54,731 nt of DNA, taken from the NCBI GenBank assembly GCA_002791275.1, contig PFWT01000025.1:1-54731 (forward strand), written 5' to 3'. Made by a program: the position numbers and the translations under genes. Below, piece after piece: positions 7,288 to 45,999 of the stretch. How positions within the stretch are numbered: the stretch's first letter is position 1; every line of letters begins with the position of its first letter. This stretch comes from Candidatus Uhrbacteria bacterium CG_4_9_14_3_um_filter_41_35 (GTDB lineage: Bacteria; Patescibacteriota; Patescibacteriia; UBA9934). The notes below the pieces were generated by a model. That model searched no databases and was not told the origin of the DNA. It saw only the letters and a list, made by a program, of their open reading frames with translations.

Positions 7288-9042
7288 ATGGTTATAGCGA
7301 TTGTTTCTTTGATTTACCTTACAAAGACTCGAAACGCTAGTAACAAACAGAAAAAAATTACCTCACGAAACCTTTTCGAAATTTCACTTCTCAAGGAGAT
7401 CGGTGAGCGGATCGGCTACTCGTTAAACGTGCAAAATATCGTTGATATTATTACTGGCTCCATTCATCAGTTTATGGAATACAGCACAGTTTCTTACATG
7501 CTCATCCAACCAGATGGTATTATTTTTAAAACCACACTCGAAGAATCTATTTCAGAAGATTTTATCGAGGATTTGGAGAGCCGAATGATTGCCTCTATAT
7601 CCGCTCTTCTTAACAAAGATCTAAGTGACGTTACTGTTAAAAAACTTACAACTGGTGCGGTTATTAGAAATGATAAAAAAGTTAGCATCCAATCGTTTTT
7701 CAATATCCCCCTCATTATTCGCTCAAATGTTGTTGGGGTAATTACCGTAGCTCACACCAAACCCGATCACTTTAAAGATGAGGAAACAACCCTTCTTTAT
7801 AAGATTACGCAAACTGCTTCAAATACCGTGTCCCGCCTAGAAACCGTCATCGAAACCGAAAAAACAAAGATGACGACTATGGTAAAGAGCATGGCCGACG
7901 GTATTTTAATGCTTGATAACGATTATAGAATTTTGATCGCAAACCCCTCGCTCAAGAAAATCATTGGCTTGGCTTACAAAGAACATATTGATATTTTTGA
8001 TATTATCGAAACACTGGGTACTACTTTTGATATTCGTGAACTAATAGATAACTGTATTTCACAAAAAACCAGCATAACTTCAGAAGAAGTTGAGATCAAT
8101 GATCGGTTCGTAAAATTTACCTCATCACCAGTTTGGTCCGAACCTGGCGAAACTTTAAGAATTATCGGAACCATTACTGTAGTTAACGACATCACAGAAG
8201 AGAAAAAACTAGAACAAATGCGGGAAGATTTTACAGCAATGATGGTACACGAACTTAGAGCTCCGCTCACTAGCATCAAGCTAACCTCAGAGATTATCAA
8301 AGACGGCACACTGGTACCTGGTACATCAGAATTTTCGGAATATACAAATTCACTACTAAGCACCTCAACACAAATTCTCGAATTAGTGAACGATATTCTT
8401 GATGTTTCAAAAATGGAAAAAGGTAGCTATAAATTAAATATCGTAGCTTCGGATATCAGAAATATCGCAAAAGGTAGTTTGGCAAGTTTCGAACCAAACG
8501 CCACTGCTAAAAAAATCACCTTAAACTTAAACATTGATCCGAAAATACCCGCAGACGTCTTGCTTGACCCCAAGTACTTACGTGAGTCGATTAATAATTA
8601 CCTCTCAAACGCAATTAAGTTCACAAAAGTTGGAAGTGTAAACCTGCAAATGCTCTTACACGAAGCTGGGAATAATTTAGAAAATGAGGCTTTTGTAGCT
8701 GGCATTAAGTGGTTCCTAAAAACAACTGATCAAATTCGTAATTTGCCAAATTCTATCATTGTAGCAGTTACAGACACTGGAATTGGTATTCCGCCTGAAG
8801 AGTTTAAATTACTTTTCAAAAAGTTCAGCCAAGTCTCCACAGCTCAACAATCAGAACAAAAAGGTACCGGGCTTGGTCTTGCAGTTGTTAAAGGTATTGC
8901 TAGCGCACATCACGGTATTGTTGGGATTGGCTCTGAAATAAACCACGGTTCAACTTTCTACATCACCTTCCCGCTTGTCCAACCAGAGGCTTCGGAAACA
9001 AAACAAACAGCTGATATTCCTCAGTTAGAAGACGCCAAATAA
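7288..9042 (+). CDS. sensor histidine kinase (GAF-like + PAS + HisKA + HATPase_c)
   Basis: H-box MVHELRAPLTSI, N-box NNYLSNAIKF, G-boxes DTGIGI and GTGLGL. The 5' boundary is uncertain (see findings). Confidence 0.85.
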   Translation: MVIAIVSLIYLTKTRNASNKQKKITSRNLFEISLLKEIGERIGYSLNVQNIVDIITGSIHQFMEYSTVSYMLIQPDGIIFKTTLEESISEDFIEDLESRMIASISALLNKDLSDVTVKKLTTGAVIRNDKKVSIQSFFNIPLIIRSNVVGVITVAHTKPDHFKDEETTLLYKITQTASNTVSRLETVIETEKTKMTTMVKSMADGILMLDNDYRILIANPSLKKIIGLAYKEHIDIFDIIETLGTTFDIRELIDNCISQKTSITSEEVEINDRFVKFTSSPVWSEPGETLRIIGTITVVNDITEEKKLEQMREDFTAMMVHELRAPLTSIKLTSEIIKDGTLVPGTSEFSEYTNSLLSTSTQILELVNDILDVSKMEKGSYKLNIVASDIRNIAKGSLASFEPNATAKKITLNLNIDPKIPADVLLDPKYLRESINNYLSNAIKFTKVGSVNLQMLLHEAGNNLENEAFVAGIKWFLKTTDQIRNLPNSIIVAVTDTGIGIPPEEFKLLFKKFSQVSTAQQSEQKGTGLGLAVVKGIASAHHGIVGIGSEINHGSTFYITFPLVQPEASETKQTADIPQLEDAK

Positions 9043-39571: not shown

Positions 39572-40604
39572 ATTTTCTAATTTCAGCGTTTGATTTAATT
39601 TGCGTTTCGGTAATAAGTTTTCTGTCCTTTAAAGCTCTACGTGCCAGTCGCCAGATTGAGAGTAGCCTACCCCTTGTTTGTTTTTCAAAAATAAAACCAT
39701 AAAGCACTCGAGCTCCTTCGCCAAAAATAAGCTGTGGGGCTGACCTTATAAAATCTGCAAACGATAAATTCTTGAGTAGCACAAGTAGTTGATTTCGCGT
39801 TGAAAGAGCCGCGAAAAATGGTCGTTGATTCCGCCGATTTTTAATTCTATCGAGCCACGTTTGCTTTTCCGCTCCATACATTCCTCTGTAATGCCAAGCA
39901 ATAGCCTGCGGAGCAAACTTTGTAATAATACCTAGTTTCTGAAGTCGCCAAGCTAAATCACAATCTTCCCGGTAAGCAAAAAACTCACCATCGTAGAACT
40001 CGTCGTTTAGCATTACTTTTTGAATTACACTCAAACGATAAAGTCCGATAGTCCCTGTTGGTCCAAAAAGACCAAGTTTATTGTCGTACTGCCCTTTGTC
40101 GAGCTCACCTGCTCCGCGATCTGACATTCGCCAGTCTTTACCCACGTTCATACCCGTTGAATCGAGAATATCTGACTTCACAGTTTCCTCTAAAACTTCA
40201 TTGCCAGTATTCTCTCCAAAAGCGCGGTACAATTTTGGTTGAACCGCCCCCACATCAGTATTTTCGTCCAGTACCTTTACCATTTCCGCAATACAGTTCT
40301 CGTCGAGAATCATATCTGAGTTCATTAGCAAAAAGTAAGGATCTTCATCCTCATCTATACGGTGTTCGATTGAAAACTTTATTAGCTGATTAAACCCCGG
40401 GGCAAAACCCAAATTCTTAACATTCCGACCAACAATAGTTTTAGGGTAATAAGTTTGAAGATATTTAAGAGTATCGTCCGTGCTACCGTTATCTAAAATC
40501 CGAACCGTAAATTCAGAATAGGTTTGTTTTTCAAAAGATTCAAAAAGATCCGGCAAATATATCCGATCGTTCCAAACCAAAAAGTGTACGTATATTTTAG
40601 TCAT
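39555..40604 (-). CDS. glycosyltransferase family 2
   Basis: ILDNGSTDDT, NLGFAPGFN, MNSDM and AYREDCDLAWR motifs. Confidence 0.8.
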   Translation of the reverse strand: MTKIYVHFLVWNDRIYLPDLFESFEKQTYSEFTVRILDNGSTDDTLKYLQTYYPKTIVGRNVKNLGFAPGFNQLIKFSIEHRIDEDEDPYFLLMNSDMILDENCIAEMVKVLDENTDVGAVQPKLYRAFGENTGNEVLEETVKSDILDSTGMNVGKDWRMSDRGAGELDKGQYDNKLGLFGPTGTIGLYRLSVIQKVMLNDEFYDGEFFAYREDCDLAWRLQKLGIITKFAPQAIAWHYRGMYGAEKQTWLDRIKNRRNQRPFFAALSTRNQLLVLLKNLSFADFIRSAPQLIFGEGARVLYGFIFEKQTRGRLLSIWRLARRALKDRKLITETQIKSNAEIRKYVRNS

Positions 40605-40730
40605 AGCCTTAGTCTACTTTAAGTTAAGCTTCTGGTCAAAAAAAGTTATAAATCCTGATTTTTTCATAATTTGTACAGTAAATCTGAACAACAAATATAG
40701 CTAATACTAGCCAATAATATATGCATTTAC

Positions 40731-40759
40731 TTGACAAAAGCTTTAAAATGTGTTATTAA
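40731..40759 (+). promoter_or_regulatory. near-consensus sigma-70 promoter of the high-GC cassette
   Basis: TTGACA (40731-40736), 17-nt spacer, TATTAA (40754-40759) preceded by TGt. About 26 of 32 positions match the promoter at 33096-33127. Confidence 0.6.
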
Positions 40760-40766
40760 ATGTGCA

Positions 40767-40967
40767 TAGTAAAGATGAGAAAAGGAGGTACGAGCCCTTG
40801 ATCATCCGTTCACAATTCAGAAACCTACTTAAACAGCTACAAGGGCTTGTAAAAGTAATTTTCACAAGGAGAGACCCTAGCCTGGGGTAATTAGGCATTA
40901 AGCATTATTATGCTTAAAAAGACTGGATTGTGTATTTCTCACCGACATATATAATCCAGTCTTTTTC
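40767..40967 (+). ncRNA. putative structured leader or small RNA ending in an intrinsic terminator; it could encode a 30-aa peptide (40798-40890, TTG start)
   Basis: Stem AGCCCTTG (40793-40800) / CAAGGGCT (40840-40847), hairpin 40898-40917, and terminator AGACTGGATT..AATCCAGTCT+TTTTT (40920-40967). GGAGG lies at 40784-40788. Confidence 0.35.
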
Positions 40968-41036
40968 ATTTTCGAAATTGACTACAGAAACTACAGTCCC
41001 CTGTCTGGGACTTTAAATAAATGACCGGAGGTCATT

Positions 41037-41492
41037 ATGACCAAGATTGGAATGGATATCCCGGCAACAAATTTTCCCGCGCAACGCCTCGTGGCGCTGC
41101 GCCAGGCACTCCGCTACGACCTCGTGGGCGATTTCGCCCACGAGGTCGTCGTCACCGACCAGGGCGACATCCTCGCCCAGACGGTGTGGGTGCATACCCA
41201 CACCGGCGAGCTCGTAAAGAGCCCGCCGGTGTCAAAGCGAGACGGACTCGTCCGTCTCGCCGACCACCTCGCCTGGCTCCAGGCGAAGGTGGAGACGTCC
41301 GCAAAGGTCGCGGCGCGACGCGCTGCGACCGAGCGACACCGAAACTCGTTCGAGTTCGGTGTCGTGGGCGGGGGCGATAAGCGCCCCCGCCGACTACAAG
41401 GCCAAGAAGGCCAAGAAGTCGGCGGAGTCCCGGAAGATCCGGGACTCAATGAAGGGAGGCTACTCCCTGAAGAGCGGGCGATAAGCGGCTGA
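41037..41492 (+). CDS. hypothetical protein on a high-GC foreign segment; the 3' part is probably frameshifted (alternative end 41484)
   Basis: GGAGG SD at 41027-41031. Strong G/C third-position bias holds in this frame up to about 41370. After the palindrome at 41367-41391 the bias moves to the +1 frame (ADYKAKKAKKSAESRKIRDSMKGGYSLKSGR*). Confidence 0.55.
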   Translation: MTKIGMDIPATNFPAQRLVALRQALRYDLVGDFAHEVVVTDQGDILAQTVWVHTHTGELVKSPPVSKRDGLVRLADHLAWLQAKVETSAKVAARRAATERHRNSFEFGVVGGGDKRPRRLQGQEGQEVGGVPEDPGLNEGRLLPEERAISG

Positions 41493-41565
41493 CCCCTACA
41501 ACATGCAAATGTTTGTAGGGGTCCCATACAATGTTCATAAAATTGCTTGTGAGTATTGCTGGGAA

Positions 41566-41598
41566 ATAAAAAAATCAACTGCAAGCAGTTGATTTTTT
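41566..41598. terminator. bidirectional intrinsic terminator
   Basis: A8, stem ATCAACTGC-AA-GCAGTTGAT, then T6. It lies between the convergent high-GC ORF and the GT2 synthase gene. Confidence 0.75.
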
Positions 41599-41601
41599 GT
41601 T

Positions 41602-43092
41602 TTACTGTTCTTTCGTCTTCTTCTCGGTTACATTAAACCCTAAATAGGTTCCAAGCATAAACCGCGTCTGCGCATCTATCGCTGGAATTGCCCCGAAGAG
41701 AATGAAGGTTATTGGTAATAGTCCCCACTGCGCAATCATAATTAACCAGTTATGCTTTCCAACCTCTCCTGGTCTTTTTGGCAGAAAGAGGAAGCTCATA
41801 ATACCACTAGCAAACACCCCGATTGTGGCTACCTGCATCATTCGCTCAAGAGCAAATGGCGAGTTCGCAATAATCGCAGTTGGTGAGTCGCCAGCTACAA
41901 AGAACGGTAAATATCCCAGCATAAAAATCAGCATTGGCGCTGTGGCCCAAGTGTACATTCCTTCGATGTGATTAAAAAGGAACTTGAATTTAACGCTTCT
42001 TGGCAGTTCCGGGTGTTTTCTGAACTGTTCGATCATATACGGCAAATGCTCAACTCCCCAGGCCCAACGACGTTGCTGTTTGTAGAGAGCTTTCAGACTT
42101 TCAAAGTAAGTCTCACCCTCGACCGCATCCATATGCACCGGAATAAACATTGGGACAACTCTGTAATCACCGTCATAGTGAATAAGTCCCTGCAAGAAAA
42201 TTCGTGAGTCCTCCGACACCAAATCCGCTTCGTGGTAACCAACATCCACCAGCATTTGCCAGGGCATTGAGTGACTGGAAAAAGTCCACATTCTTTCTTC
42301 ACGCACCAGTTCCGTGAGTAACCAAAAAGTTGTTCCAAAAGCAGAAATGCGCACCGGTGCCGTGGCGTACCAAATATTATTTGAAAAGAGCGTGAGTGGT
42401 TGGTAGCTGGCGCGAAGAGGATTTTCGACGGTTAAAAATAAATAAGTTAACCGAGCAAAATACTGTTCGTGCGCAATAGTGTCTACATCAAAGGCTGAGA
42501 CGAGAATATTTTCGTACGGCAAGTGCATTTCGTTTATAATCGGCCGAACCTCTTTTGCCATCCACCTCATGTTACTGCCCTTTCCCGCCATTTCTCCAGG
42601 CAAACCTTTCGGGTGCACAGTAAACATCAGTTTTTTAAACTTATCCGCAAATTCTTTTGATAAAATTTTCTTGTACTCTAGGAAGTTCTGTTCATCCCCC
42701 TCTTCACCACCAAGAACAACGATAAACCTATCAGAGCGATATTTGGTTTCGCTCAGAGATTTAAGGGCGTGGCGTAAAATTGAGATATCTTCCTTGTAAG
42801 TTGGGAGCATTACTACGTGGTAAATTCTTTCCCAGTTCTCGAACTTCTGAACCTCAGTCTGCCAATCATGGTGCACAGTTTGCTGATATTGTTTGTAGGC
42901 AAAGATGGTGTGGACCAGGAAGTAGAGCACTCTGAGTGTCCAATATAAATCAAAGATTATGATAAAGACAACGGCGATAACTGGGGCAAAAAATGATGCA
43001 AAAATTGCTAGCAAAATAGTGCTCCAAGCTAAAAAACCGGGCACTATTTCCCAAAACCGTAAACGGCCATACTGTCCAAATTGTTCAGGCAT
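41602..43092 (-). CDS. integral-membrane processive family-2 glycosyltransferase (synthase-like)
   Basis: TM helices at both ends and the QQRRWAWG motif (Q-x-x-R-W). ATG 43092 lies 2 nt after the ftsX stop. Confidence 0.7.
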   Translation of the reverse strand: MPEQFGQYGRLRFWEIVPGFLAWSTILLAIFASFFAPVIAVVFIIIFDLYWTLRVLYFLVHTIFAYKQYQQTVHHDWQTEVQKFENWERIYHVVMLPTYKEDISILRHALKSLSETKYRSDRFIVVLGGEEGDEQNFLEYKKILSKEFADKFKKLMFTVHPKGLPGEMAGKGSNMRWMAKEVRPIINEMHLPYENILVSAFDVDTIAHEQYFARLTYLFLTVENPLRASYQPLTLFSNNIWYATAPVRISAFGTTFWLLTELVREERMWTFSSHSMPWQMLVDVGYHEADLVSEDSRIFLQGLIHYDGDYRVVPMFIPVHMDAVEGETYFESLKALYKQQRRWAWGVEHLPYMIEQFRKHPELPRSVKFKFLFNHIEGMYTWATAPMLIFMLGYLPFFVAGDSPTAIIANSPFALERMMQVATIGVFASGIMSFLFLPKRPGEVGKHNWLIMIAQWGLLPITFILFGAIPAIDAQTRFMLGTYLGFNVTEKKTKEQ

Positions 43093-43094
43093 AA

Positions 43095-44009
43095 CTAAAC
43101 TTTCAAGTAATTCCTCATTGCAAACCAAGTTGTAAGCACACTAAGTAGCGTAAGTACAACAAATTGTGAGCCAAAAATCAAGAGCCCGTTATCTAGGAAG
43201 TAGTTGAAAACTGAAATATTCACTTCACCGAAGAAATTAGAGATCTGCGTTTCAAAACTTCCGAGGAATAAAAATGTTCCGCCCATCACCGCTGAAGTTG
43301 CAAGAAGGCTGTAAAAAATTGATTCAAGCAGGAATGGTCCGCGAATAAACCAATCGTTTGCACCAACTAATTTCATAATTCCAATTTCGTCCCGATGCAC
43401 GTAAATCGCAACACGAATAGTGTTAAAAATTATCATTATGGCAATAAGCCCAAAGAATCCTGCAATAACTATTCCACCAATTTGGATTCGACCATTAATC
43501 GTTTCGATATTTTTTATAATATCTTCGTAGTTCTGATAATCCTTATTACGAATATACGGCGAAAATTCTGGTGTTTCAATTGCTTCTAAAATAAACGGAA
43601 AATCAGCTGGCGAATGTGCCGAAACCACCACTGCGTGACCAAGCGGAGTCCCGCCAACTTCATCGATTGACGATAAAATTATAGGTTCAGTTTTATGCTT
43701 TTCTCTAAAGTCGCTTGTTGCGTCTTCGGCTGAAATAAATACTGCGTCTCTTACCTGTGGCAATCCGAGCAAGTAGCCCTGAGAAGCTTTAGCAATATCC
43801 TCTGAAGCATCAATATTGAAGTAAACGGTAATTTCCACTTTGTCTTCAATACTCTTTAGCGTAGCGTTTGCCATTAGATTTAAAAAAATGATGGCGTTAA
43901 TTGTAAGTAGCGTTAGAATGAAAATTGTAATCGTAACAAAAGACAGCCAAAAGTTTCGAAAGAAATTTTGAATTGCGAATTTAAAAAGTCGGTAGGTCGA
44001 GGTAAACAT
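43095..44009 (-). CDS. ftsX: cell-division ABC transporter permease FtsX
   Basis: Four-TM FtsX topology with a periplasmic loop. It follows ftsE with a 1-nt gap. Confidence 0.8.
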   Translation of the reverse strand: MFTSTYRLFKFAIQNFFRNFWLSFVTITIFILTLLTINAIIFLNLMANATLKSIEDKVEITVYFNIDASEDIAKASQGYLLGLPQVRDAVFISAEDATSDFREKHKTEPIILSSIDEVGGTPLGHAVVVSAHSPADFPFILEAIETPEFSPYIRNKDYQNYEDIIKNIETINGRIQIGGIVIAGFFGLIAIMIIFNTIRVAIYVHRDEIGIMKLVGANDWFIRGPFLLESIFYSLLATSAVMGGTFLFLGSFETQISNFFGEVNISVFNYFLDNGLLIFGSQFVVLTLLSVLTTWFAMRNYLKV

Positions 44010-44820: not shown

Positions 44821-45999
44821 CTACCAGGCTAGCTCAGCCTCACGAAAAGCTGTTCTTGCCTCCTCATACAAACCGAGCCCAAAGTAGTGGCTTCCGAGCG
44901 CGGTCCGTTTATAGAACTTGGCAAGTACTGGTGAGCGTAGTGTTTTATCAACTACGACCTTGCCAGTAGCGTCTTGAACAAGACTCGCTCGCATAGCTTC
45001 GAGCTCACTGTGCAGTAAAGCAAGCTTTGCGACGTGAACGCTCTTTTCGTGCTCCTTACGCGGACGCTTTTCGATTTCCGCAAAAGCTCGGCGCATCCAG
45101 TCAACGTATTCACGCTGAAATTCCAGTGCTTCAAGGACAAACTTAACCCGACGAAGCCGTTGAAGCGCACTTCCGGAATGGCCAGCATTCAGTAGAATGC
45201 TGGCTGGGCGAAGGTCATCCACAATACACCTGCGGTAAGCGTTCCGCCAAGGCTGAAAGTGCGTAACTTCAAGCCTTAAAATAAGCTCCGAGATTTGCCA
45301 AATGGCGTGGTTAAAGTTGCCACGCCCAGCTTCCCGCTCGACCTCGTAGATAATTGAACCAATTTCGAGGTGACGAAGTCGCATCTCGTGCTCTTCGTGA
45401 GCAATGAGTTGCCGAACGAGCAAATGGCGTTCTTCAATATGCCCGCAGATATCGATCATCGCGCGGTACAGCCGATAGCCGTTATCGCCAGCAGCGATGA
45501 GTTGCGCTGCTGACTTCCCAGGATTCTGCCTGCCGAGCGAGTCCCTGCACTCCGCAGAATCACCAAGACGCCAAGCCATCTGGATCCGCTCTTCGTGCAG
45601 AGCGCCCGAAAGCTCAGCCTTTGCTTCAAGTGCCTGCGCCGTAAACGCGACCCGCTCGTCAGCGCTTAACCGTTTCCAGGCCCGCACCTGTCCGTTAAGG
45701 TCAAGGCAGGTTTGGATTAACCGAAGCATTACAGAAATATAGCCCTCGTTTTGAAAGCTACCGTAGCCGTAGCCGTCCTTGGTGTGACCAAGGCTTCGGT
45801 CAAACTTGTCGAGAGACGCAAAGTAGTGCCACACTTTCTGACGATGGTTATAGGCCAGTACACCCCCGTGCTCGAAGATCTGCGCAGAGTCCTCCACAAG
45901 GTAATACAAATGATTACTCAGCCTCACGAGTGCAGAGCGCGGGACATGCACTGTCCTGTTTTTTGCAACCCGAAAAATCTTTTCGTCCTCATTCGACAT
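44821..45999 (-). CDS. hypothetical all-helical protein (392 aa)
   Basis: Long open frame with its own terminator (about 44790-44815) and a TTGACAAAAGC -35-like element upstream. No motif was recognised. Confidence 0.65.
   Translation of the reverse strand: MSNEDEKIFRVAKNRTVHVPRSALVRLSNHLYYLVEDSAQIFEHGGVLAYNHRQKVWHYFASLDKFDRSLGHTKDGYGYGSFQNEGYISVMLRLIQTCLDLNGQVRAWKRLSADERVAFTAQALEAKAELSGALHEERIQMAWRLGDSAECRDSLGRQNPGKSAAQLIAAGDNGYRLYRAMIDICGHIEERHLLVRQLIAHEEHEMRLRHLEIGSIIYEVEREAGRGNFNHAIWQISELILRLEVTHFQPWRNAYRRCIVDDLRPASILLNAGHSGSALQRLRRVKFVLEALEFQREYVDWMRRAFAEIEKRPRKEHEKSVHVAKLALLHSELEAMRASLVQDATGKVVVDKTLRSPVLAKFYKRTALGSHYFGLGLYEEARTAFREAELAW

Follow-up and report, generated by a model that had tools for sequence, protein, structure and literature searches.

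The locus considered here raises the question of why a short gene of about two-thirds G+C should lie in an otherwise AT-rich stretch of a Candidatus Uhrbacteria genome, and whether so sharp a change in composition marks foreign DNA. The stretch analysed, referred to below as the window, is the 54,731-nt contig PFWT01000025.1 of Candidatus Uhrbacteria bacterium CG_4_9_14_3_um_filter_41_35 (assembly GCA_002791275.1). The element in question occupies 997 bp (40605-41601) between two minus-strand glycosyltransferase genes, GT508 (508 aa; 41602-43128) and GT349 (349 aa). The original prediction took it for a foreign fragment placed under a resident expression signal, or else for a chimeric assembly. 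The explanation regarded here as probable is a different one: the interval would be a self-contained accessory cassette (promoter, leader, hairpins in the 5′ untranslated region (5′UTR) and a gene of ~148 aa) which was palindromised by template switching and then frameshifted.

The gene, its homologue and the palindrome array

The coding part of the cassette is read from the plus strand and is homologous to a protein, P0002, encoded on a separate 1.85-kb contig (L047). Its features are the following.

41075-41490, no strand: G+C-rich block, 66-67% G+C
41079-41523, no strand: tiling array of ~13 local Watson-Crick palindromes, near-perfect and head-to-tail, with ~69% of the bases paired
41037-41344, plus strand: 5′ portion of the gene, codons 1-102 in frame 1, encoding the N-terminal part with homology to P0002
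41342-41344, plus strand: candidate +1 frame-change site, a run of AAA; a single A of it has no partner in the palindrome CGACACCGAA(A)CUCG / CGAGUUCGGUGUCG, where it is the one surplus base
41345-41484, plus strand: basic C-terminal tail, frame 2, ...SAPADYKAKKAKKSAESRKIRDSMKGGYSLKSGR, with stop TAA at 41482-41484
41372-41383 and 41476-41487, plus strand: 12-nt direct repeat GGGCGATAAGCG, the copies 104 nt apart

The sharp switch to very high G+C described in the original prediction is real: a base count gives 66.1% for 41058-41490 versus 33.8% for 40605-41036, upstream of the open reading frame (ORF). The initial 38 nt of the ORF are at 39.5%, and the jump is located at 41075-41080, ~40 nt into the ORF. 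Over all 430-bp segments of the window the mean G+C is 0.408 (sd 0.050); the highest value, 0.667 for the segment starting at 41076, places the block 5 standard deviations over the mean, and the runner-up elsewhere reaches 0.570 at 45285. In its initial 330 nt, frame 41037 has G+C fractions of 0.72/0.43/0.80 at codon positions 1/2/3 (GC1/2/3), whereas the flanking genes have a GC3 of 0.34-0.47 and a total G+C of 38-44%. The third-position bias unlike that of the host is thus borne out, while the 45-50% attributed to housekeeping genes was too high. The hand count of 41/60 for 41101-41160 is exact; line 40621-40680 is AT-rich, as had been said, but counts 15/60 rather than ~17/60. All four overlapping ORFs reported at the locus exist, at 41021-41380 and 41037-41492 on the plus strand and at 41114-41584 and 41013-41201 on the minus strand. 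The description of six nearly stop-free frames was overstated: stops are indeed depleted (11 in the six frames of 41075-41490 vs 18.2 ± 3.7 in shuffles, P = 0.03), but frame 41037 is the sole one fully open across the block. Three things had been overlooked: that the ORF is frameshifted, that its leader RNA is conserved and that the block is extremely rich in palindromes. As a separate observation, a 392-aa ORF without a Pfam match (44821-45999, minus strand) ranks second among the composition outliers, its G+C being 52-57% vs 41% in the window.

The same sequence recurs in independent data. The exact 151-aa product of 41037-41492 is recorded in 31 blocks of a public assembly index, and 22 contigs with the identical product were read; they represent four or more projects and several samples of ENA and JGI, in the form of SPAdes, MEGAHIT and JGI assemblies. 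In 22/22 the ORF sits between the same glycosyltransferase and FtsEX genes, and the contigs are 99.9-100% identical across both composition junctions. Five loci are identical to the window over 40500-41700; L062 differs by 1 base in 5.9 kb, and L004 shows 99.89% identity over 10.7 kb rightward of 40765. The abruptness of the composition change is what would be expected if a low-GC contig had been joined to a high-GC read set. Because independent assemblies by three assembler types, made from different samples, share the junctions inside 14-55 kb contigs with identical flanks on both sides, a chimeric join is not tenable, and its probability is practically negligible.

As regards relatives of the protein, a word-indexed search of 5.8 billion proteins returned the protein alone, and an exhaustive HMMER (phmmer) pass over 1.84 billion cluster representatives yielded one further protein, P0002, at E = 3.3e-4. 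Pairwise BLASTP between the two gives E = 4e-12 to 9e-13, and a profile built from both sequences brought in no additional members. Over about 15 billion proteins in all, P0002 is the one homologue recovered. The codon alignment is collinear over 146 codons with one 2-codon gap; start context and stop position agree between the two genes, and the motifs VWV, G.L.K.P, HL.WL and a terminal R..MKGG are kept. The L047 ORF is at 60% G+C (GC1/2/3 of 0.59/0.43/0.78), with a GC3 of 0.39 in the neighbouring gene and 40% G+C in the leader, and it passes from AT-rich to GC-rich just past the start codon, as in the window. Since L047 shows the same switch together with the leader, the composition boundary is an inherited property of the cassette and not a fusion scar. 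High G+C, and especially a GC3 of ~0.8, is a property of the gene family in low-GC hosts, and the AT-rich leader and GC-rich ORF form one inherited unit. The neighbouring gene on L047 was considered as a source of functional context and set aside, being itself an unrelated orphan. Pfam, PHROGs, PADLOC and NCBIfam gave nothing for the overlapping ORFs, P0002 or the protein with its frame repaired, and a profile search against PDB sequences gave no relative. Searches by blastn and tblastn against INPHARED phages and PLSDB plasmids returned two chance matches of 29-36 nt only, and a protein-pattern scan of IMG/VR returned none. The lysine/arginine-rich tail suggests nucleic-acid binding.

The most distinctive property of the coding sequence is its palindrome content. 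The hairpins of the array span 12-34 nt each. The perfect stems measure 16, 10, 11, 8, 10, 10 and 11 bp; their spacers are 2-5 nt long, except in the last (41491-41523), which has 11 nt. The further stems contain one mismatch or one indel. The RNA of 41020-41605 folds at -335.7 kcal/mol vs -213.9 ± 6.7 for dinucleotide shuffles (z = -18.2), and for the GC-rich block taken by itself z is -13.8 (plus strand) and -14.6 (minus strand). The corresponding values lie between -1.3 and +0.2 for six comparison ORFs, namely that of L047 (-1.3) and five more GC-rich ones taken from sister loci. The 162 predicted pairs comprise 121 G-C, 38 A-T and 3 G-U (2%), and in three palindromes the complementarity extends up to a 2-nt spacer, a position unusable for an RNA hairpin. 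The structure is not a by-product of the amino-acid sequence, because the native fold also stands out against synonymous-codon shuffles (z = -9.7). Nor are the palindromes copies of a dispersed repeat, because no two are alike and none of the block's 13-mers is found anywhere else in the window. A phasing of the palindromes with the reading frame, which would point to sense/antisense coding symmetry, was considered and rejected: the phases vary (2, 1, 0, 1, 0, 0).

Comparison with L047 provides clear individual cases (41182-41205, 41264-41292 and 41453-41468) in which one arm consists of conserved codons and the other, differing from L047 at several nucleotides, mirrors them; intra-strand template switching at quasipalindromes would be expected to leave such a signature. 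In one such mirror, GTG TGG GTG (VWV), CAT and ACC CAC ACC (THT) follow each other, where L047 has TGC CGC AGT and reads VWV-ECRS; in another, CTC GCC TGG, CT and CCAG GCG A lie around the conserved HL.WL.

The reading frame of the window copy is interrupted. Homology to P0002 runs through the first ~100 residues in frame 41037 and then continues in frame 41038 through the tail, where the K/R-rich segment AKKAKKSAESRKIRDSMKGG aligns with NAKRAKSIATRERMKGG of P0002; the annotated frame-1 ORF instead continues to a TGA at 41490-41492. The GC3 maximum shifts likewise, from frame 41037 (0.80) to frame 41038 (0.85) over the last 126 nt. Deletion of one A at 41342-41344 restores a 148-aa ORF that is gap-free against P0002 from residue 66 to the end, and this extra A is unpaired within the palindrome GCGACACCGAA(A)...TTCGGTGTCGT. 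Each copy of the direct repeat GGGCGATAAGCG holds a TAA, one being the stop of the frame-3 ORF and the other that of the frame-2 tail. This copy is probably an allele recently inactivated, truncated or tail-swapped by a one-base insertion; a tolerated or functional shifted product is a conceivable alternative to inactivation. It may also be asked whether programmed +1 ribosomal frameshifting joins both frames and leaves the gene intact. The open stretches of the two frames end no more than 8 nt apart, homology in the frame-2 tail remains perfect and its GC3 is high, and a very stable hairpin (41367-41391) lies just 3′ of the shift region. On the other hand, the site carries no known slippery motif, frame 0 meets its first stop only at 41490, the P0002 gene uses one frame throughout, and the simplest reading of the extra A is an insertion that interrupts an otherwise perfect palindrome. 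Given the lack of a 0-frame stop and of a slippery motif, together with the unshifted homologue, programmed frameshifting is very improbable.

The leader RNA and the expression signals

Upstream of the gene, the cassette carries the following features.

40731-40759, plus strand: sigma-70-type promoter, TTGACA (40731-40736), 17-nt spacer, TGT-TATTAA extended -10 (40754-40759)
40764-40970, plus strand: conserved structured leader RNA, ~205 nt, recognised from blocks shared with L047 and from its fold z-score
40774-40806, plus strand: P1/P2 stem-loop with GUACGAG apical loop, preceded by the leader 5′ block GCAUAGUAAAG
40789-40851, plus strand: lineage-specific leader hairpin
40866-40888, plus strand: leader block AAGGAGAGACCC-loop-GGGG, kept in L047
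40898-40917, plus strand: small leader hairpin
40916-40966, plus strand: leader intrinsic terminator, ~20-bp stem AAAAAGACUGGAUUGUGUAU...AUAUAUAAUCCAGUCUUUUU, conserved UCUC-containing loop, U run
40995-41036, plus strand: 5′UTR of the ORF, with hairpins AGUCCC/GGGACU (40995-41012) and AAUGACC-GGA-GGUCAUU (41020-41036)

The promoter had escaped an automatic promoter scan since its -10 hexamer ends in A, and the RNA would start near 40764. The promoter pattern ACTTGACAAAAG...TGnTATAnT also occurs in L047, in L004 and in an unrelated insert of L014; it is therefore typical of the clade, and the expression signals are native.

The leader RNA is far better conserved than the protein. The L047 leader has the RNA 5′ block GCATAGTAAAG and GTACGAGCCCT in common with that of the window, and the leader blocks are 100% identical between the two despite 27% protein identity. 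The intrinsic terminator, positioned between promoter and ORF, keeps 20 pairs in L047, where both arms (AAAAGACTGGATT / TAATCCAGTCTTTTT) and the UCUC-containing loop are identical. Against shuffled controls, the leader folds with a z-score of -5.1 for the window and -6.2 for L047, and the P1/P2 stem-loop contains two compensatory pair changes. The second hairpin of the 70-nt 5′UTR partly sequesters the Shine-Dalgarno (SD) sequence GGAGG (41027-41031); L047 has UCCC/GGGA and UCUG-GAGU-CAGA at equivalent places.

A third leader allele is found in L004, which has another left flank leftward of 40765 and a third promoter variant. Over the 10.7 kb compared, 8 of its 11 differences from the window fall in the region of the lineage-specific leader hairpin (40799-40905), a pattern that points to recombination at the leader or to the presence of two leader copies in one genome. 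The left flank of this near-identical strain (L004 1-760, compared with 40560-40905 of the window; JGI 3300007985) contains a divergent gene for a secreted protein.

The order of promoter, structured leader, strong terminator, SD hairpin and ORF is the basis for a control model of the attenuator or riboswitch type. Judged from the sequence, the SD hairpin and read-through at the leader terminator would together govern ORF expression, and the leader is a candidate new attenuator RNA. Among the 4227 families of Rfam 15 it has no match: the scan of the window at the gathering score and searches of the region and of L047 at E <= 10 yielded only tRNAs and hairpin noise. A covariance model of the leader 5′ domain (R1) recovered only the window, L004 and L047, with none further in 43 sources. 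The pattern GCATAGTAAAG...TACGAGCCC gave one chance match in IMG/VR, inside a GIY-YIG coding sequence, and zero matches in JGI metagenome contigs, a collection that is evidently without even the known copies. The pattern AAGGAGAGACCC...GGGG had zero matches in IMG/VR, and a scan for the terminator arms returned 13 unrelated palindromes. A leader peptide of 30 codons from TTG 40799 was considered and dismissed, since it carries a frameshift in L004 and is missing from L047.

A side observation concerns a short shared motif. The hairpin motif GTACTnnAAnGTAC occurs 5 times in ~0.6 Mb of fetched loci, vs ~0.3 estimated by chance (L015 4182-4195, plus strand, and 7540-7553 and 7684-7697, minus strand; L010 5998-6011, minus strand; L047 997-1010, plus strand), and may represent a short element, RNA or DNA, dispersed in this clade. 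The occurrences include an 18-nt identity, CGTACTGAAAGGTACGGT, linking the variable stem of the L047 leader with a tRNA-adjacent site in L015.

The insertion site

The position of the cassette was compared with the orthologous junction in related genomes. Homologues of GT508 with 51-75% identity are present in 40 species-level metagenome-assembled genomes that carry the label Candidatus Uhrbacteria or Patescibacteria. Among these, 15 loci have the GT349 homologue starting 8-45 nt past GT508; L043 and the nearest relative, L007 (75% identity), belong to them. As these relatives have only 8-45 nt where the window has 997 bp, the entire interval is an insertion into the operon, in the opposite orientation, and is absent from the orthologous site of close relatives; the comparison with sister genomes called for in the original prediction thus identifies the unit as an accessory one. 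The remaining features of the insert lie at its two ends.

40605-40730, no strand: AT-rich left spacer of the insert, only 8-45 nt in 15 sister loci
40639-40611, minus strand: probable replacement promoter for GT349, a promoter-like site TTGACC-17-TAGACT
40700-40709, no strand: upstream element GCTAATACTA, also in the L004 and L047 copies, with changes
41564-41603, no strand: bidirectional intrinsic terminator (A run, 14-bp stem, T run), serving the cassette and the convergent GT508, which ends at 41602

In other lineages, the same junction carries unrelated inserts of 0.4-3.9 kb. Several of these encode unrelated small proteins with a GC3 of 0.73-0.82 in genomes of 44-49% G+C, many with signal peptides, and across Uhrbacteria the junction seems to have served repeatedly as a landing site of GC3-rich accessory genes. 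Uhrbacteria of 55-62% G+C are present in the same genome set (L014, 59%; L030, 62%). No mobility signature was found at the cassette, with no tRNA nearby and no mobility gene in the flanks, and flanking target duplications or terminal inverted repeats were sought without any convincing candidate. On the plus strand the GC skew is -0.14 and 32 of the 35 long ORFs of the window lie on the minus strand, so that the cassette is transcribed against the majority direction and presumably against replication.

The contents of the slot in other loci are varied. They include His-rich secreted proteins (L009, L010), signal-peptide proteins (L011, L012, L044) and two helical ORFs (L008). The variants noted just downstream of the GT508 homologue in L008-L012, L020 and L044 are not palindrome-rich. 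In L022, L025-L029, L033, L045 and L046 the slot holds another conserved gene of ~770 nt, with 63-74% mutual nucleotide identity.

Origin of the array and comparison with known systems

The account regarded as probable can be put together as follows. In an Uhrbacteria-like Patescibacteria genome, the cassette lies between two glycosyltransferase genes that share one direction, and runs counter to both. It carries a gene for a small protein of ~148 aa with a K/R-rich C-terminal tail, which forms a two-member family with P0002. In this lineage, ~13 coding segments would have been converted to perfect Watson-Crick inverted repeats, most likely through repeated intra-strand template switching while a GC-rich, head-on gene was replicated, and events destroying conserved residues would have been filtered out. 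A strongly promoted gene of this composition and orientation would be a plausible hotspot of fork stalling. The insertion of a single A in one palindrome arm would have come afterwards, placing the basic tail out of frame. Copying at the DNA level is preferred over stepwise RNA compensation because of the strand symmetry, the near-absence of wobble pairs and the complementarity reaching into the spacer, and template switching is the favoured origin of the palindromes. Such switching at quasipalindromes creates and perfects hairpins, in coding sequence as well (PMC8794818, PMC8604942, PMC7202029, PMC5941160).

Several observations weigh against this account. The asymmetry between palindrome arms relative to L047, a single distant outgroup, is not significant (mean |L-R| 0.228 vs null 0.195, P = 0.21), and the other GC-rich inserts of sister genomes are not palindromised, so that GC-richness alone is no trigger. 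The excess of structure over synonymous-codon shuffles fits selection for structure too. Every available copy carries the frameshift. The AlphaFold2 model of P0002, built on a two-sequence alignment, is poor (pLDDT 57); it was discarded after Foldseek against PDB gave no match below E = 0.6. On the side of the leader, covariation support is thin, with two compensatory pairs across three leader alleles and two ORF lineages, and a conserved antiterminator pairing was not identified among the three alleles. The 7-nt antiterminator candidate AAUUCAG (40815-40821) is destroyed in L004 and missing at that place in L047.

The main rival is that the hairpin array is itself selected, and the extreme structure with its contribution from codon choice agrees with this just as well. 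The array could serve as a structured, nuclease-resistant or ribosome-throttling mRNA, as a long structured RNA replacing a decaying ORF, or at the DNA level as cruciforms or as single-stranded hairpins that hinder replication or transcription. The fold z-scores of -14 to -18 lie far beyond the controls, codon choice contributes strongly to them, hairpins cover the transcript from end to end, UTR and 3′ region included, and the frameshift hints that the protein may be dispensable. Apart from one single-nucleotide polymorphism (41352), the block is invariant across the near-clonal copies, with 8 differences in the leader region of L004, but this near-invariance is uninformative in strains that are 99.9% identical over 10.7 kb. 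Against a selected array stand a homologue free of excess structure, loops that share no common motif, the near-absence of G-U pairs and strands that fold equally well. Complementarity reaches positions that an RNA hairpin cannot use, and the array leaves reading frame and conserved residues in place. A selected array is considered unlikely, and template switching is retained as the preferred origin.

Capture from outside is less probable still. Under this explanation, a high-GC fragment from an actinobacterial host or its phage would have been fused behind a resident promoter, SD sequence and first codons. The break ~40 nt inside the ORF with a GC3 of 0.80, the absence of the cassette from the closest relatives, the other GC3-rich genes carried by the slot in sister genomes and the existence of high-GC Uhrbacteria (L014, L030) as possible donors would all be in keeping with it. 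The L047 homologue, however, shares the leader blocks, the terminator, the UTR hairpins and the position of the switch, which would require two independent captures, an implausible coincidence; and neither billions of proteins nor the phage, plasmid and viral collections named above yielded a relative that would indicate an actinobacterial, phage or host-derived source. The foreign-fragment reading of the original prediction is therefore set aside, the source it proposed is unsupported, and capture is rated as improbable. A similarly low probability is assigned to an RNA-protein module resembling a type III toxin-antitoxin system, in which the leader would be the small RNA and read-through would produce the protein. 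The order of promoter, non-coding RNA, intrinsic terminator and small ORF is the layout of ToxIN, the RNA part is far more conserved than the protein, and the copy is frameshifted, as inactivated toxins often are. Against it, the leader is without tandem repeats (TRF gives weak 2-copy matches of 10-12 nt only), and the protein matches no ToxN, AbiQ, CptN, TenpN, Pfam, PADLOC or NCBIfam model.

If template-switched, the locus would be an unusually dense record of a process acting on coding sequence, of possible use in asking how proteins tolerate mirror mutations and why a minimal-genome bacterium should be prone to them. The locus also indicates that a sharp G+C jump just inside an ORF need not mean that foreign DNA has been joined to a host promoter; here the GC3-rich body is inherited along with its AT-rich control region. 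The leader represents a candidate new class of cis-regulatory RNA in Patescibacteria, for which, to our knowledge, very few regulatory RNAs have been described. A slot with many genes for secreted proteins may, in addition, bear on cell-surface variation in Uhrbacteria episymbionts. A more far-reaching proposal, offered tentatively and with considerable doubt, is that a coding sequence has been almost wholly rewritten as an array of perfect palindromes, with frame and conserved residues kept. This would imply either hyperactive local template switching on a head-on, GC-rich gene in a repair-poor bacterium of the candidate phyla radiation, or direct selection for hairpin-saturated mRNA or DNA; in addition, the undescribed attenuator- or riboswitch-like leader would define a new and extremely rare mobile cassette, with a GC3-rich coding body maintained in low-GC hosts.

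Among known systems, the cassette is closest in general form to an accessory islet with a cis-regulatory leader, and the palindrome array is the aspect likely to surprise a specialist. It shares with accessory islets the atypical G+C and GC3, the absence from the closest relatives and a slot whose cargo differs by lineage; it differs in having no integrase, tRNA, target duplication, terminal repeat or identifiable donor, and in that its odd composition is conserved in the gene family along with the AT-rich leader. With attenuators and riboswitches it has in common the order of parts, leader blocks and helices more conserved than the downstream ORF, a terminator directly 5′ of the SD region and a hairpin over the SD sequence, whereas its leader stands outside the Rfam families and an alternative antiterminator pairing was not found among its three known alleles. 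The arrangement of promoter, non-coding RNA, leaky terminator and small protein gene recalls ToxIN, AbiQ and CptIN, from which the cassette is set apart by the lack of tandem RNA repeats and by a protein unrelated to known toxins. GC-rich palindromes within a reading frame of an AT-rich genome are reminiscent of REP/BIME, of Rickettsia palindromic elements and of mitochondrial GC clusters; here, in contrast, each palindrome is unique and the gene is collinear with P0002, with no inserted segments. The resemblance to quasipalindrome template-switch mutagenesis lies in the perfect inverted repeats, the 2-5-nt spacers and the multi-nucleotide differences from the homologue by which one arm mirrors a conserved one, and the difference is one of density: the known cases are isolated, whereas here ~13 palindromes tile 440 bp with the frame and the conserved residues kept.

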